A DNA stretch of 64,000 bases from Candidatus Norongarragalinales archaeon (GTDB taxonomy: Archaea > Micrarchaeota > Micrarchaeia > Norongarragalinales > Norongarragalinaceae). The notes under the pieces were generated by a model. The model was given only the letters and a program-made list of their open reading frames with translations. It was not told where the DNA came from and made no database searches. Positions 24,959 to 63,301 of the stretch are shown here, in pieces. How positions within the stretch are numbered: the stretch's first letter is position 1; each line of letters opens with the position of its first letter. The stretch lies in the NCBI GenBank assembly GCA_038884755.1, contig JAWABJ010000001.1, positions 352,001-416,000 on the forward strand, read 5' to 3'. The position numbers and the translations under genes are program-made.

Positions 24959-25099
24959 GCCGGAGTGGCAGAGCGGTTATTGCGCTAGTCTCGAAGTCAG
25001 GCTTTTCTTTTGCGAAAAGAAAAGCCCGACGCGGCAAAAGAAAACCGTACGAAAACTAGTGTCCGCAAGGACTCGGGAGTTCGAATCTCTCCTCCGGCG
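24959..25099 (+). tRNA. tRNA-Ser(CGA) with 58-nt intron at 37/38 (24996..25053)
   Basis: GCCGGAG/CTCCGGC acceptor, CTAGT-CT-CGA-A|intron|A-ACTAG, long variable arm GTCCGCAAGGAC, GTTCGAATC, G73. Confidence 0.92.
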
Positions 25100-25118
25100 C
25101 TCTTTATAGAGTGGTGAA

Positions 25119-25550
25119 ATGAAAGTCGTGAAGGCGGTCAAGGCGCTTATTACAAACGGCGAGGGAAAAATCCTTTTCATGAAGGAAAAAACGCCTTCTG
25201 GAAGGGAGTATTACGGCTTTCCGGGCGGCAGGCTGGAAGGAAACGAGACCGAAGAGCAAGCGTTGAGGCGGGAAGTGAGGGAGGAAACAGGGCTGGGCGT
25301 AAGCAAAGCGAGCGCCGTCGGCGGTTATTCTTTCGTCATGGAAAACGGAACGCGCGTCGAATGCACTGTTTTCGAGTGCGAGGTTGAAAACCCCGAAAGC
25401 ATGCGCTTGGACTTTCAAGACGCGGCGCAAGAAGAGATAACTTCGTTCCGCTGGCTTTCGCCGGAAGAGTTTTTTTCCGAGAAACTGCCGGGCGCAAGCG
25501 AAGGTTTCAGCCGTTTTCTGCAATCGCTGCAAACCAAAAGAATTTTATAG
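25119..25550 (+). CDS. NUDIX hydrolase
   Basis: PGGRLEGNETEEQALRREVREETG Nudix box. Confidence 0.9.
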   Translation: MKVVKAVKALITNGEGKILFMKEKTPSGREYYGFPGGRLEGNETEEQALRREVREETGLGVSKASAVGGYSFVMENGTRVECTVFECEVENPESMRLDFQDAAQEEITSFRWLSPEEFFSEKLPGASEGFSRFLQSLQTKRIL

Positions 25551-25614
25551 CATGCAAAAGTGCTGAATAAACGGTTTTGCGATTTTTTGAACCGCAAGAG
25601 GGGAACGTTGCCGA

Positions 25615-28176
25615 ATGGGGTCTGACTCTGGAATTCTTTTTTGGGGCTTTCTGGCAGCGGTGCTGCTCGCCCAAACGGCTTCAGCCTTTGACGTGGTCGA
25701 CGCGACGCCAGGATTCAATTTCACCATAGGGAGCATAACCCAGAATTACACTCTGACGCTTACGATAACCAACAACACTCCAGTCAACGCTTCCAACTTT
25801 ACCGTAGTCCGCTTTTTCCTGCCTTACGGGATAGTCAATTCGACCGCATGCAACGCTACTGGCACTAACGGCCTGTTTTACGGAGTCAATGCGACGTACA
25901 GCGCTTGCGCCGTCAACGTCACCAACGCAGGAGGCACGCCGTTCAACGTTTCAATGCTCGTAAGGCTCAACATTTCCGCGTTTTCAGGGGCAGGGCAAGT
26001 GATTCCGCGCAGGCCTTCGCATGGAGATTTGGGTCCGGTCTTGACTTTCATGAACGCGACTTGTGCCGTAGGCTGCGGAAACGGAAACGTCACGCAAAAC
26101 GCCGTGGCAAGGTACGGCAACCACTCGAACGTCAACCCCCGCCCGTACTTCGTAAACCAAACCGGAACTTACCTGAACAACGTTTCCGTCAGCGCTTGGA
26201 ACCAAACCGACCCCATTTACTCCATCCAACTGCCCATAATGACTTTCAACGCAACAAGCATGAGGCCGGAGTACACGAACGACTCTTTCGGAGTGGCGAT
26301 GTACTTCGACAAGGACGGGCAGATGATGATGCCCACATTCATGCGCTTGTATTCTTACACTCTCAACTTCACTTTCTTGGACGTTGCGAACGGAAGCAAC
26401 TTCACCCTCTACAATCCTGTCAACACTTCCAGCGAAACGAACGGGGCGACTTGCAACATGCAGAACGGAGACTGTCCTGCCGAGTCGATGATGCCGCTTT
26501 TGACGAGGACCGAAGTGTTTTTCGACCCAATAACGCAAACCAACACTAGCTTCACCATGTCCACCCCCTCGCCCAGCGGGTACGACTTGTACGTCAACGG
26601 CACCATCCGCACCATAAACTTCAGCAGCGCCAACGAAACGGGCTACTGGGGCATAAACGCGTCGTTCCAGCCCGGCATGATGCAAAACGCCCAGGGAATT
26701 TTCAGGATAAACGTCACGGACGCGGCGATTGCGCAGAGCACCACTTACGGCTTGTACTTCACGATAACCAACCAGACCGACGTTGGAGGAGGGTCGCTGA
26801 TTCCCACTTCGCCCGTTTACATCGTAAACCAAAGCATTTCCGGCTGGGACCCGACTTCGCCCCCGCCGTTCGGACAAAACCTCACCATCAGCTACATCGG
26901 CTGGCTGAGGAACGGGCTGAAAAACTGGACTTTTTACAACGCCAGCCTCCGCTACTTCATTCCCACGAACGCCACGCCGAGAAGCCCGACCAACGACACT
27001 GACTTCCAAACGTGCACTTACGACGGCGGCGGGACTAGCACGAATTGTACAATCAACATGACGCGCAACATGAACTTTTCCTGGACTACGCAAGGCAGGA
27101 GCGGATGGGATACTGCGGGCGTGTCGACAAACAACAGCTGCTTGACTTTCAACGACGACAGGCCGGGCGAGCAGGATGGCGGCAACGTCACCGTGTGCTT
27201 CCGTTCTTACGAGCTCAACATAATCAACACCACGTTCAACTCGTGGAACCCCAACAGCACGGCAACCAGCATAGTGGGCGTGAACTTCACTGCCGACATT
27301 TCGTTCCCGGTAATGGATGAGACCAACGTGCCCAGCGGCACTGCCGGCGCTGAAAACAGCTACAACATCACGTTCCAAACTTCGATGCAGACGAACTTGA
27401 ATTTGACAGACAAAGTTCCGAACATTGCAAACGCCGGCTGTTCAGGCACCACAATAACCATAGACGGCTCGGCGCTCACTTGCGGAACCAACTACACTAT
27501 CGGAAGCTTGACTTTGAACAGCGTTTCGCAAGGAAGCCACACTATCAGCGTTTCCTACACGCCTTCGGCGAGCAGCGGCTCCGGCAGCAGTTCGGGAGGA
27601 GGCAGCGGAGGGCCAGGTTGTGGAGAAGGAGGGTGCGGAAGGAGCACTGCAACGCCCACTCCAGTCCCGACGCCCACTGCAACCCCGCCTGCGACTGAAA
27701 AGAAAATAATAAACTCGCAAACCGGCGTGGTCGCCACGTTCGGTTCGAAAGGCGCTACGTTCGAATTGTCTTACGAAGCCGATGAAAACGGGTTTTACGG
27801 CGACTTGACCTGGCGCCTGCCTTTCGACTACTCGCAATACGCGTTGGGCTTGGTGCGCATTACTCCCCAGCCCAAGCGCGTGCTGAAGGGAAGCGTAATC
27901 GCAACTTGGGAGAACGTCGAGTTGAGCCCCGGCGAAGCGTTCAAAGCCAGCGTAAGCGTGTCGAAAGAACTGGAGAGAAGCATTCTTGAAGAGTTTTCCG
28001 CGCCTTCGCTGAACGCGAAAGCAAAGCCGACCGCGTCGGTTGAAACGCCGTCGTCCACTCCAGCGCCTTCGAGAAGCGCGCTGCAGCCGGACTACACGCT
28101 CATTCTAGTGCTCATAGCAATCGCGCTCGTCGTAGCGTATTACTTGGGCGTAGTGCGCAAGAGAAAAGGGCTTTAA
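25615..28176 (+). CDS. Large surface glycoprotein (S-layer/adhesin-like)
   Basis: Signal peptide, >40 N-x-S/T sequons by manual count, Ser/Gly linker, PT repeat, C-terminal TM + RKRK. Confidence 0.8.
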   Translation: MGSDSGILFWGFLAAVLLAQTASAFDVVDATPGFNFTIGSITQNYTLTLTITNNTPVNASNFTVVRFFLPYGIVNSTACNATGTNGLFYGVNATYSACAVNVTNAGGTPFNVSMLVRLNISAFSGAGQVIPRRPSHGDLGPVLTFMNATCAVGCGNGNVTQNAVARYGNHSNVNPRPYFVNQTGTYLNNVSVSAWNQTDPIYSIQLPIMTFNATSMRPEYTNDSFGVAMYFDKDGQMMMPTFMRLYSYTLNFTFLDVANGSNFTLYNPVNTSSETNGATCNMQNGDCPAESMMPLLTRTEVFFDPITQTNTSFTMSTPSPSGYDLYVNGTIRTINFSSANETGYWGINASFQPGMMQNAQGIFRINVTDAAIAQSTTYGLYFTITNQTDVGGGSLIPTSPVYIVNQSISGWDPTSPPPFGQNLTISYIGWLRNGLKNWTFYNASLRYFIPTNATPRSPTNDTDFQTCTYDGGGTSTNCTINMTRNMNFSWTTQGRSGWDTAGVSTNNSCLTFNDDRPGEQDGGNVTVCFRSYELNIINTTFNSWNPNSTATSIVGVNFTADISFPVMDETNVPSGTAGAENSYNITFQTSMQTNLNLTDKVPNIANAGCSGTTITIDGSALTCGTNYTIGSLTLNSVSQGSHTISVSYTPSASSGSGSSSGGGSGGPGCGEGGCGRSTATPTPVPTPTATPPATEKKIINSQTGVVATFGSKGATFELSYEADENGFYGDLTWRLPFDYSQYALGLVRITPQPKRVLKGSVIATWENVELSPGEAFKASVSVSKELERSILEEFSAPSLNAKAKPTASVETPSSTPAPSRSALQPDYTLILVLIAIALVVAYYLGVVRKRKGL

Positions 28177-29030
28177 AGCAACGCCGCAGCCAAGGCGAAG
28201 GCAATAGCGCCTCCGGCGAAAGTGCTGAAGAAATTCACCGAATCGTTGTCTATTTGCCTAAACCCTCGCACGAGCTTGGTTTTCGTCCCGCACTTGTGCA
28301 CGGTTTTCTCCGTCTCAGCCCTGCACTTGGCGCAATAAAAGTTCGCTTGAACGGTAGCCCCGAGAAGGCTGTCTGCAAGAGAGCCGGCAAAGCCCGCAAA
28401 GGTTATCAAAAGCAAAAACCTTCCTCCGCCCACGAACTGGTCGAAAAACAGCGGCCCGAGCAAAGCAAGCTCAACCGAATTGTTCAACACGTTGAGCAAA
28501 ACCGCGGCGAGGGCTATGAAAAACGCGCCGGCAAGGGAAACCAGCAACCCTCTCACTGAAACCGCCCCGCTCAACCCCGCCTTCACTTGCCTGAAAGTGG
28601 TTATCAGCCACGTTTTCTTGCTCAAAACCCCGAGTTCGGTGGCCCACGTGTCTGCGGTTGCAGTTGCAATCACGGCGGTGTAAGCTGCAAACAACTCAGG
28701 CTTGGGGTCGAGAAAATAGCCCACCGCGACCAGCGCGGGCAACGCGCCGTTGGCTACAACCTGCCAAAAGTCTCGCGTGCCGCCCTTCGCGAATTCCGAG
28801 TAGGCGTTTTGCTTCATTTTCTCCTTGTAGCGCGTCAACAACGCCGACGAAAGGAAGAACAGCACCAAGAGCGTGAGCCAAGTCCACCCTCCGAAGGCGA
28901 ACACGCTCACGCCGATGAACCACGCGGCTACCGTGCCGCCGTCGGTCAACTCGCGCTTTTTGAACGCGTAAATAGCCAAAAGCAGGCTTACAATCAGCCC
29001 CACCAGCACGTTAATCTGCTCGAAAGCCAT
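28173..29030 (-). CDS. DUF92/TMEM19 family membrane protein
   Basis: LTDGG, RDFWQVVANG, ADTWATELG, G.SGAVS..G, DSLLGATVQ, DNDSVNF. Confidence 0.9.
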   Translation of the reverse strand: MAFEQINVLVGLIVSLLLAIYAFKKRELTDGGTVAAWFIGVSVFAFGGWTWLTLLVLFFLSSALLTRYKEKMKQNAYSEFAKGGTRDFWQVVANGALPALVAVGYFLDPKPELFAAYTAVIATATADTWATELGVLSKKTWLITTFRQVKAGLSGAVSVRGLLVSLAGAFFIALAAVLLNVLNNSVELALLGPLFFDQFVGGGRFLLLITFAGFAGSLADSLLGATVQANFYCAKCRAETEKTVHKCGTKTKLVRGFRQIDNDSVNFFSTFAGGAIAFALAAALL

Positions 29031-29115
29031 TTTACCCCTCAAACCCGCGTTTCTACAGAAAGCTTTTCGCAACCTCAAACTAATAAAAGCATTGCAAGAC
29101 AAAAGATTTTCTTGC

Positions 29116-29329
29116 GCCTCAGTAGCTCAGAGGTAGAGCGTTCGCCTCGTAGCCCAGCTTTTCTTTTGTAAAAGAAAAGCTAGGCGCTGCAAAAGAAAAC
29201 AGTTTGCAGACGCCGGAAAAGAAAAAGCTTGGTGCGGTAAAAGAAAACCGCGCGTAGTAAAAGAAACGAATAGTTTTTCTTTGGCGGCGAGCCAGCGAAA
29301 GGTCGGGAGTTCAAGTCTCCCCTGAGGCT
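29116..29329 (+). tRNA. tRNA-Thr(CGT) with 142-nt intron at 37/38 (29152..29293)
   Basis: GCCTCAG/CTGAGGC acceptor, TTCGC-CT-CGT-A|intron|A-GCGAA, BHB helix CTCG/CGAG, GTTCAAGTC, U73. Confidence 0.92.
29152..29283 (+). repeat. Five tandem AAAAGAAA(A) hairpin modules in the tRNA-Thr intron
   Basis: Motif starts at 29170, 29191, 29217, 29239, 29259; complements at 29159 and about 29275. Confidence 0.85.
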
Positions 29330-29348
29330 CTAAAAAAAGGTTGTGCGC

Positions 29349-49664: not shown

Positions 49665-50084
49665 CTAAATGTCCAACACTATCCTAGCAACCCAAACGCC
49701 CTTGTCGTTCTTGAACACGCGCGCACGGTGCATAGTCACCGCCTTGACATGAGTGCCTGCTGCCTTGCGCGCGTAAGGGCTGCCGTAAGCTATTCCTTCG
49801 ATTGTCATGCGCTTTTCATCAATCTTCTTGACTTTAAACTCTTTCCAGTACGCCTGCCTCGCGTCGCTTTCCGAAACCATTTTGTCGAGAAGAAAGACGA
49901 CTATCTCGTCGAGAGTGCTGCCCTTGTTTTTTACCGTCGTTTTGACGGTTTTTTTCAATAGCCTGGGCTTCGCCATTACCGAAAACATTGCCGACGCGGC
50001 GTTTTCCACGCATTCTTTTAGCGTTTTTCCGTACGCCTCGAACAAAACGTCGGCAGTATGCTCGAAAAAGGCGAATCGTTTCAC
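49665..50084 (-). CDS. Archease (RtcB cofactor)
   Basis: EHTAD, VKAVT.H, C-terminal LDI. Confidence 0.93.
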   Translation of the reverse strand: MKRFAFFEHTADVLFEAYGKTLKECVENAASAMFSVMAKPRLLKKTVKTTVKNKGSTLDEIVVFLLDKMVSESDARQAYWKEFKVKKIDEKRMTIEGIAYGSPYARKAAGTHVKAVTMHRARVFKNDKGVWVARIVLDI

Positions 50085-63129: not shown

Positions 63130-63262
63130 GGGCCCGTAGCTTAGCCTGGTGGAGCGTTCGACTGATAGGGCTTTTTACCCCTGGGGAAAAACCCCCGAAA
63201 AAAAAGGGAGAAAAAGGCTTTTTGAAATCGAAAGGTCCCCGGTCCAAATCCGGGCGGGCCCA
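63130..63262 (+). tRNA. tRNA-Ile(GAT) with 59-nt intron at 37/38 (63168..63226)
   Basis: GGGCCCG/CGGGCCC acceptor, TTCGA-CT-GAT-A|intron|A-TCGAA, T-arm CCCGG-TCCAAAT-CCGGG, A73. Confidence 0.88.
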
Positions 63263-63301
63263 CTTCAGTCTGAATAGAGATTGAAAAGTGGTTAAAAAAA
63301 A

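Follow-up and report, generated by a model that had tools for sequence, protein, structure and literature searches.

A sequence shared by two tRNA introns

In a 64,000-nucleotide (nt) stretch of DNA from a Candidatus Norongarragalinales archaeon, referred to here as the window, the introns of two different transfer RNA (tRNA) genes, tRNA-Ser(CGA) and tRNA-Thr(CGT), begin with closely similar sequences, which raises the question of what it is that the two introns share. A reading made from the letters of the window alone (the sequence-only reading) had taken the shared sequence for a selected RNA structure that presents an AAAAGAAAA loop, either as a tRNA-hosted circular RNA with a protein partner or as a mobile element resembling a miniature inverted-repeat transposable element (MITE). 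Our analysis favors a different answer. With a probability of roughly 0.55, we propose that a short, non-autonomous and triplex-coded repeat accounts for the shared sequence; it would operate at the DNA level, as an A/T-rich counterpart of the bacterial BoxC/PIT repeats. As judged by comparing sequences, the three-arm symmetry of this repeat is selected, the repeat has spread in multiple copies and in both orientations, it has been gained or lost between congeners, and it is concentrated in stable-RNA genes, in parts that are variable or can be removed. The best reading of the two introns would then be that they are the removable wrapping of the repeat and not a tRNA-hosted functional RNA.

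An Rfam search gave tRNA matches (RF00005) at 24959-25099 and 29116-29329, both with long insertions in the anticodon loop, and ARAGORN in its intron mode assigned the identities Ser-CGA and Thr-CGT. Only tRNA reached its gathering score in the Rfam search, and the best other match had an E value of 1.1. Insertions of this kind conceal tRNAs from standard tools: at default settings ARAGORN detected one of the four tRNAs in the window, and the output of a low-threshold run was largely noise. The limits of the introns, 24996-25053 and 29152-29293, were set by intron-less orthologous genes, and precisely the 142 nt from 29152 to 29293 are missing from a contig of a related organism's DNA. Removal of the introns at position 37/38 restores the tRNA, as judged from the empty orthologs and from this 142-nt gap. 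The pairing at the junctions was examined by eye and corresponds to a strict 3-4-3 bulge-helix-bulge motif in the Thr gene and to a relaxed motif, with a 3-bp central helix only, in the Ser gene. The folding z-scores relative to shuffled sequences were −3.4 for the Ser intron and −5.8 for the Thr intron, and C/D boxes are absent from both introns, as had been stated in the sequence-only reading. The features of the two genes are as follows.

24959..24995, + strand: 5′ exon of tRNA-Ser(CGA) (Rfam, ARAGORN)
24996..25053, + strand: 37/38 intron of Ser-CGA, 58 nt, consisting of one repeat copy and a 9-nt tail (from the empty site in the related genome G004, the fold and the junctions)
24996..25030, + strand: Ser hairpin 1, with the outer stem, U-tract 25003-25011, loop GCG 25012-25014 and A-tract 1 25015-25023
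25024..25035, + strand: Ser linker, 12 nt; its 5′ half forms the outer stem's 3′ arm and the remainder is the turn toward the third strand
25036..25044, + strand: Ser A-tract 2, the predicted third strand, a mirror of A-tract 1 with 9 triplets (8 A.A-T, 1 G.G-C)
25054..25100, + strand: 3′ exon of tRNA-Ser(CGA) (Rfam, ARAGORN)
29116..29151, + strand: 5′ exon of tRNA-Thr(CGT), with the exon half of the bulge-helix-bulge central helix at 29146-29149
29152..29293, + strand: 37/38 intron of Thr-CGT, 142 nt, a composite of decayed and expanded repeat copies
29152..29199, + strand: complete Thr repeat copy, with U-tract 29159-29167, loop, A-tract 1 29170-29178, linker and A-tract 2 29191-29199
29217..29247, + strand: second Thr unit of A-tract, 12-nt linker and A-tract, without a U-arm, like the unit that opens the Thr intron of the related genome G001 (by eye)
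29259..29287, + strand: extra Thr A-tract 29259-29266 and U-tract 29274-29282, the remnant of an inverted right-hand copy, which the G001 ortholog has in complete form (by eye)
29288..29294, + strand: intron half of the strict Thr bulge-helix-bulge, where CGAG pairs with exon CTCG and the 3′ splice site lies within the 3-nt bulge (by eye)
29294..29330, + strand: 3′ exon of tRNA-Thr(CGT) (Rfam, ARAGORN)

The homology of the two introns that had been noticed before was reproduced, with 43 identities over 53 positions and exactly the 10 differences that had been listed, and the hairpin core of 22-23 nt occurs twice in the window vs 0 times in 100 shuffles. The nearest relative of the Ser intron is not the Thr intron but the intron of tRNA-Arg(TCT) (alignment score 42.5 vs 37.0), and 46 of the first 50 nt of these two introns are identical by eye. 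The Arg-TCT intron, which matches both introns, is also the best explanation for a joint from 25045 to 29269 (run X1). By eye, the Thr intron resembles a composite like that of G001 from which the right-hand hairpin is missing and to which A-units have been added.

Three-arm structure and mirror symmetry

The repeat is 35-55 nt long and is composed of a U-tract, a loop, an A-tract, a linker and a second A-tract. Both window copies have the arm order of class II and 9 triplets, within the 6-15 T-A.A / C-G.G triplets of that class. The first loop has 2-3 nt, and the linker has 12 nt in both window copies and 6-20 nt across the family. The pyrimidine equivalent (T.A-T / C+.G-C) of the triplets predicted in the Ser copy lies on the − strand.

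Covariation was analyzed in 26 anchor-registered copies with the same type of linker; 27 such copies were found, and one with a double G was left out. The outer stem of hairpin 1 was paired in 23, 26, 25 and 21 of the 26 copies at positions 3, 5, 6 and 7, with several pair types, and at positions 1 and 4 pairing was not above shuffled. The covariation first seen between two introns therefore holds for hairpin 1 in a larger set, and the inner run lengths were equal across all three arms in 25 of the 26 copies. For hairpin 2, no position was above shuffled partners in the same copies. At least three closing pairs were present in 8 of 39 copies in the genome that contains the window (G000; 927 kb, 93% complete; shuffled mean 7.5), in 24 of 107 copies in relatives (shuffled mean 17.9, p 0.07) and in 30 of 149 among the GTDB loci listed (shuffled mean 25.9). 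Hairpin 2 as a conserved A-loop was rejected on these counts, which shuffled partners largely reach as well. Of the 10 differences that were all said to preserve the fold, the swap at positions 38/51 falls in a hairpin that is not conserved in the family. The swapped A.C/C.A mismatch is present as described, but on the opposite strand it is a G.T/T.G wobble.

These counts bear directly on the proposal of a tRNA-hosted circular RNA, in which the AAAAGAAAA loop on the second hairpin would be shown to a protein partner. Both introns do fold in that way individually, and RtcB with archease could circularize them. Against this, the pairing of hairpin 2 was no better than that of shuffled partners in any of the sets, the host introns are missing in congeners, and copies of the repeat occur outside introns and in reversed orientation. 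At the level of sequence, the proposal appears largely refuted for the second hairpin, and we regard a circular RNA of this kind as highly improbable.

The relation between the two A-tracts was determined with 96 distinct copies that have a single G (33 from G000 and 63 from the loci of relatives), double-G cores being left out. The run lengths of the two A-tracts correlated in mirror register (rho 0.68 and 0.79), and the correlation was absent in direct register (−0.02 and −0.06). Among the 68 asymmetric copies, the mirror register was better in 54 and the direct register in 4, with 10 ties. A direct repeat or a bistable switch between the two A-tracts is disfavored by this test. The second A-tract is, in its sequence, a mirror of the first, which is the signature of a predicted class II intrastrand triplex, and we assign the repeat to this layout because inverted and mirror symmetry are found together in the order pyrimidine arm, purine arm, mirror arm.

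It might be argued that the three arms are a by-product of mutation, such that slippage and gene conversion between tRNA genes make the A/T runs of intron hairpins longer, invert them and duplicate them, with neither selection for a third strand nor a dedicated mobility. The almost identical beginnings of the Ser-CGA and Arg-TCT introns would agree with this, as would the tandem additional A-units found in the Thr-CGT and Leu-TAA introns and the near-identical 3′ trailers of the Ala-CGC and Ala-GGC genes described below. Slippage and template switching yield direct or inverted copies and are not known to yield mirror copies. The result of 54 to 4 in favor of mirror symmetry speaks against a by-product, as does the recurrence of the layout across bacteria and archaea, and we give this explanation only a small chance of being correct.

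Distribution in the genome

A pattern search of G000 returned 41 U-tract/A-tract hairpins and 40 matches with an additional A-tract. A strict finder, which called for a pyrimidine arm, a purine arm and a mirror arm with 7 perfect triplets, returned 41 copies in G000 vs 0-1 in 10 triplet-shuffled genomes. What had been described as an RNA element of two introns is thus one of 41 genome-wide repeat copies with which each of these introns happens to start. With respect to location, 25 of the copies are within tRNA genes, 4 are within the genes for 16S and 23S ribosomal RNA (rRNA) and RNase P, 8 are at most 90 nt from a tRNA, and 4 are elsewhere. Altogether, 37 of the 41 are in or adjoin tRNA, rRNA or RNase P genes, chiefly as the cores of introns; 29 are within RNA genes, and the other 12 lie beyond the body of any RNA gene. 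Stable RNAs have a footprint of 21 kb (2.3% of G000), the total non-coding DNA is about 79 kb, and the remaining non-coding DNA of about 58 kb contains only 4 copies. Tolerance alone does not explain this preference for stable-RNA genes over other non-coding DNA, which implies targeting. The earlier view of a structure under selection with strong intron enrichment is supported by these data, with the qualification that the 41 copies also occur outside introns and in reverse orientation.

The 44 tRNA genes of G000 were curated by hand, and Ile-CAT, Leu-CAG and a second Met tRNA were not found in this curation. Interrupted genes make up 29 of the 44, and 19 of these 29 carry a strict repeat copy. 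The insertion sites comprise position 37/38, the D-arm/D-loop, the anticodon arm, the variable arm, the T-arm, the 3′ flanks, and the 16S and 23S genes. In the copies inspected by eye, the hairpin end is nearest to the end of the exon or gene and the third arm points away. Three of the four copies classified as elsewhere begin 4-6 nt past an apparent stop codon, also by eye.

Several individual loci were observed in addition. A near-identical repeat-bearing 3′ trailer is present on Ala-CGC and Ala-GGC (G000:C1:474052-474098, 247576-247622), which suggests conversion between isoacceptor genes. In the RNase P RNA gene (G000:C1:670514-670828(-)), the repeat is in place of a variable hairpin and is absent from the aligned genes of G003, G004 and G007. 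The 16S gene of G000 spans 2205 nt (L012:4237-6600, 16S/internal transcribed spacer); a repeat copy lies there in a 52-nt insertion within a terminal loop that is conserved, and the 3′ end of the gene has a match to a group I intron (51.8 bits). The gene for tRNA-Ile(UAU) (G000:C1:13054-13218(-)) has two introns, one in the D-arm, with the repeat, and one at 37/38. Copies directly 3′ of C/D-box-like stretches were seen by eye at G000:C1:173596-173660(-) and at L401 (G118), and they suggest that small-RNA 3′ flanks are likewise targets of the repeat. A second module is common to the T-loop introns of Arg-GCG, Arg-TCT, Gly-CCC and Gly-TCC, and a related stretch is found in the Trp intron (G000:C2:66693(-), C1:656950-657080, C1:300731(+), C1:181804(+), C3:28425-28665(-)). 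By eye, a pyrimidine tail follows a purine/pyrimidine hairpin in this module, which may be a triplex of class III type. The third intron-bearing tRNA of the window, Ile(GAT) at 63130-63263, has an intron with a purine-rich nested hairpin and without a strict repeat.

Turnover and range among genomes

The Thr-CGT gene was recovered from 14 of 26 genomes of the family. Eight of these have an intron at 37/38, which opens with a full copy in 6, has a shorter variant in 1 and is without the repeat in 1; the site is empty in the other 6, which include the congeners G003 and G004. Ser-CGA was recovered from 6 of the 26 genomes (most pattern matches proved not to be tRNAs), and of these 5 are filled with differing introns and 1 is empty. 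Comparison of filled and empty 37/38 sites revealed no target duplication, except for a 4-nt repeat at the Ser junction. Four of 147 copies have a duplicated stretch of a tRNA-Thr end (15-26 nt) on one side and the intact gene on the other, so that the fragment is followed by the element, a spacer and the intact tRNA (L215, L217 at two sites, and L198; G020, G014, G021). These duplicates may be either long target duplications or the outcome of the repair of unspliceable insertions.

The pattern was found in 32 of 41 near relatives, and in 23 of 24 within the family, with counts that, among members of the genus, range from 5 to 46 matches, roughly a ten-fold difference. Across the phylum its occurrence is patchy (44 of 151 genomes), two large families being nearly without it (1 of 46 and 0 of 25 genomes), and individual genomes show bursts of near-identical copies. 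By eye, most of the displayed copies in G026, G031, G011, G020 and G014 open insertions in tRNA arms or rRNA or trail tRNA 3′ ends, and in G131 and part of G058 the copies are in arrays and a tRNA is not evident. The exact 27-base core occurs at no fewer than 130 GTDB loci, at least, which were grouped by record titles and scored for a tRNA within about 300 nt. Among the matches listed, a tRNA was nearby in 10 of 20 from DPANN, 3 of 16 from unspecified archaea, 1 of 25 from ANME-1/methanogens, 1 of 61 from other bacteria and 0 of 8 from the candidate phyla radiation (CPR). From this difference between DPANN and ANME-1 or bacteria it follows that the repeat extends beyond tRNA introns and that the tRNA association is a DPANN trait. 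The ANME-1 copies (L026-L149) form a very uniform subfamily and often adjoin another short repeat. A phage collection contained no match to the Thr intron, and a loose form of the pattern matched at least 123 viral loci.

The turnover is also relevant to the idea that the repeat is a device selected by the host because it benefits highly transcribed genes, for example by modulating conflicts between replication and transcription or by blocking integrases whose target sites in tRNA genes are the anticodon loop, the T-loop and the 3′ end. The covariation demands selection at some level, 37 of 41 copies fall within 2.3% of the genome, and two tyrosine integrases are encoded directly behind element-bearing tRNA-Leu genes; protection from integration has indeed been proposed for tRNA introns in the accessible text of PMC4090602. 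However, a beneficial device is difficult to reconcile with the empty orthologous sites of congeners, with the ten-fold range of counts in one genus or with the families in which the pattern is nearly missing, and integrases that adjoin interrupted tRNAs do not demonstrate protection. We consider a host device rather improbable.

Orientation and the folding strand

Of the 37 RNA-associated copies, 7 are reversed relative to the transcript: 5 of them are in tRNA introns, as the right halves of tail-to-tail composites, and 2 are directly upstream of tRNA 5′ ends. A subfamily that is reversed in G000 was found in both orientations in G038. Outer-stem wobble was balanced in the 26 same-type copies, with 12 pairs of G.T-type vs 14 of A.C-type, and the corresponding counts in three sets were 1 vs 5, 9 vs 11 and 12 vs 7. 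The predicted DNA folding energies of the template strand are somewhat more favorable (−16.1 vs −14.3 and −13.8 vs −12.7 kcal/mol), and the DNA energies together with a conserved A.C position favor the T-rich strand as the folding strand; the loops favor the A-rich strand. Of the two options, the T-rich strand, with a T.A-T-rich triplex and isolated C+, should give the more stable fold. In most transcripts, one U-tract is combined with two A-tracts, which is the purine-motif arrangement, and purine-motif triplexes are stated to be unable to form in RNA in the accessible parts of Holder et al. (PMC4666352).

An RNA-mediated form of mobility was weighed against these data. Excised introns, which have 5′-OH and 2′,3′-cyclic phosphate ends, would be ligated by RtcB to the cleaved 3′ ends of tRNAs, rRNAs, small RNAs and mRNAs, with the three-arm RNA fold protecting the fragment, and would then be written back into DNA by a reverse transcriptase or by RNA-templated repair. 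Such a route would account for the 30 of 37 copies that are in transcript orientation, the hairpin usually being a few bases away from a 5′ exon end or an RNA 3′ end, for the range of sites from the D-loop, anticodon arm, variable arm and T-arm to the 3′ flanks, 16S and 23S, and for the copies that start shortly after apparent stop codons. RtcB and archease are encoded, and G-first loops are biased to the A-rich strand. The 7 reversed copies, including the two directly upstream of tRNA 5′ ends, do not agree with it, nor do the lack of a match to RVT_1 in G000, the absence of a G.U bias, the purine-motif arrangement of the transcript and the ANME-1 and bacterial cores, which are mostly distant from tRNAs. 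We therefore hold RNA-mediated mobility to be unlikely.

Splicing machinery and candidate mobilizers

The EndA protein of G000 is a full-length homolog of the epsilon-2 endonuclease of ARMAN-2 (4FZ2, E 2e-125; next match E 4e-23), a match that supports the placement of G000 in Micrarchaeota, and epsilon-2 EndA cuts both strict and relaxed motifs in vitro, as described in the accessible text of PMC3239211. RtcB is also encoded in G000, and the archease gene that had been named in the sequence-only reading was confirmed in the window.

49665..50084, − strand: archease, the RtcB cofactor, part of the general splicing machinery and outside the element

The type of EndA was rejected as the determinant of the repeat because it does not separate element-positive from element-negative families. 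DUF559 was rejected as the mobilizer; it is absent from G000, yet present in 3 of 3 genomes of an element-negative family (f2). Two tyrosine integrase genes are located directly behind intron-bearing tRNA-Leu genes (G000:C1:432611-433108, 568632-569135), and no clear duplicated tRNA end that would mark an island was found at these two loci. Between the two tRNA genes of the window, 25615-28176 encodes an 853-aa Asn/Thr-rich protein that looks secreted, has a C-terminal anchor and has no Pfam match.

Proposed course of insertion

For the DNA-level repeat, we envisage that single-stranded DNA is transiently exposed and that the repeat then folds into the hairpin with its predicted third strand. 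It would be copied at the DNA level to new sites, hairpin end first, by host repair or recombination or by another enzyme. Copies in tRNA and rRNA genes would be retained if a short tail gave rise to a bulge-helix-bulge-like motif, through which the epsilon-2 endonuclease, with its broad specificity, and RtcB/archease could remove the inserted copy.

A number of points weigh against this explanation. The triplex, the splicing and the insertion are all predicted from sequence. The mirror test is weaker within G000 (15 mirror, 4 direct and 4 ties; n=23), its p values are overstated because kin and subfamilies are not independent, and the two copies in the window are symmetric and so individually uninformative on mirror vs direct. 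A direct-copy rule equals the mirror rule at 7 triplets (43 vs 41) and falls behind it at 8 triplets (24 vs 31). The 12-nt linker is longer than the ITxF loops (1-6 nt) and the limit of Hoyne et al. 2000 (0-10 nt), as cited in Holder et al. 2015. The transcript strand is the A-rich one in 30 of the 37 RNA-associated copies, and G-first loops are commoner on the A-rich strand (13 vs 9, 43 vs 13 and 44 vs 31); both count against the DNA level because an RNA-level process would give them too. For RNA third strands in purine-motif triplexes, the accessible parts of a review contain evidence both ways (PMC7583470). An epsilon-2-sized EndA is also present in element-negative families, so that it is permissive at most and not causal. 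Finally, RVT_1, Y1_Tnp, DUF559, GIY-YIG and Cas1 are unmatched in G000, which is 93% complete, in a search that did not include DDE families.

A further and more tentative possibility, which we regard as doubtful, is that a gene-less, triplex-folding parasite of 35-55 nt is an active source of new archaeal introns. If so, the parasite would enter the genes for tRNA, rRNA and other stable RNAs by being copied with its hairpin end in front, selection would add the bulge-helix-bulge tail, and the epsilon-2 endonuclease would make the insertion harmless. The three-stranded fold would then be the feature recognized by the copying machinery, and the function of BoxC/PIT would be self-propagation.

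Relation to known systems

The repeat resembles BoxC/PIT/TM-ECO, as described in the accessible parts of PMC4666352, in the order of pyrimidine arm, purine arm and reverse-Hoogsteen arm, in its length of about 40 nt and tens of copies per genome, in the tandem inverted pairs formed by some copies, in loci that vary among close relatives, and in that an association with transposons was not found. BoxC/PIT/TM-ECO are G/C-rich with a 3-nt loop, whereas the archaeal repeat has an A/T-rich core and a 6-20 nt linker. Likewise, TM-ECO is always intergenic and without strand bias, whereas 29 of 41 archaeal copies are inside RNA genes and 30 of 37 have one orientation; the accessible text of the TM-ECO paper makes no mention of tRNA, and the BoxC/TM-ECO work could not show an intrastrand triplex in vivo (PMC4666352). 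The repeat has the class II intrastrand triplex layout without being a BoxC/TM-ECO member, and it makes natural three-way covariation available for an intrastrand triplex.

U-rich/A-rich RNA triple helices, of which MALAT1/ENE is an example, offer another comparison. The 7 of 37 reversed copies would yield the U.A-U / C+.G-C arrangement in RNA, as in pyrimidine-motif helices, but such helices differ from most repeat transcripts, which have one U-tract and two A-tracts. Mirror symmetry is, to our knowledge, not a feature of MITEs or of repetitive extragenic palindromic (REP) elements and their RAYT transposases. The U-tracts with isolated C and the A-tract with isolated G are shared with the RNA helices described in the accessible parts of PMC7583470. 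With MITEs and REP/RAYT, as far as these are covered by the introduction of PMC4666352 and general knowledge, the repeat has in common that it is short, palindromic, non-autonomous and multi-copy and forms tail-to-tail composites; it differs in that target duplication was not seen at intron sites and a Y1 transposase was unmatched. The suggestion of a MITE-like element was therefore right as to mobility and to tRNA introns as tolerated sites, but the hallmarks of a MITE are missing.

The genome also has much in common with ARMAN-2 (Micrarchaeum) as described in the accessible parts of PMC3239211, including the epsilon-2 endonuclease, T-arm introns, tRNA-Ile(UAU) and a majority of interrupted tRNA genes (56% in ARMAN-2 and 29 of 44 in G000). 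Two introns of ARMAN-2 differ in having 13 and 25 nt, and a shared repeat is not described in those parts. A description of triplex-type repeats in archaeal tRNA introns was not found in the literature searched, which covered few subscription journals. The available text of a preprint on Asgard tRNA introns (October 2026) does not mention triplex, hairpin, Micrarchaeota or DPANN; it tested copying, mobile elements and reverse transcription, did not find a general route and leaves open how archaeal tRNA introns arrive (10.64898/2026.10.13.758758). In G000, a defined short unit is the intron core in 19 of 29 interrupted tRNA genes, and filled and empty sites exist in one genus, so that donor, target and polarity become directly testable. 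The repeat may be a source of new archaeal introns.

The transposed introns of Thermoproteales are the remaining comparison. Their descriptions (Fujishima et al. 2010, as described in the accessible parts of PMC4090602, PMC3239211 and 10.64898/2026.10.13.758758) likewise report that unrelated tRNAs contain related introns, located at several positions, together with a broad-specificity endonuclease, and propose transposition at the DNA level, by a mechanism that PMC4090602 calls unknown. The similarity used to recognize such introns is also found here, between Ser-CGA and Arg-TCT (46 of the first 50 nt) and between Ser and Thr (43 of 53). Compared by description, the Thermoproteales families share the whole intron, whereas the repeat described here is a structured sub-element with site-specific tails in introns of 58 vs 142 nt, and, unlike the Thermoproteales introns, it also occurs in reverse orientation, in flanks, in the genes for rRNA and RNase P, and in further phyla.

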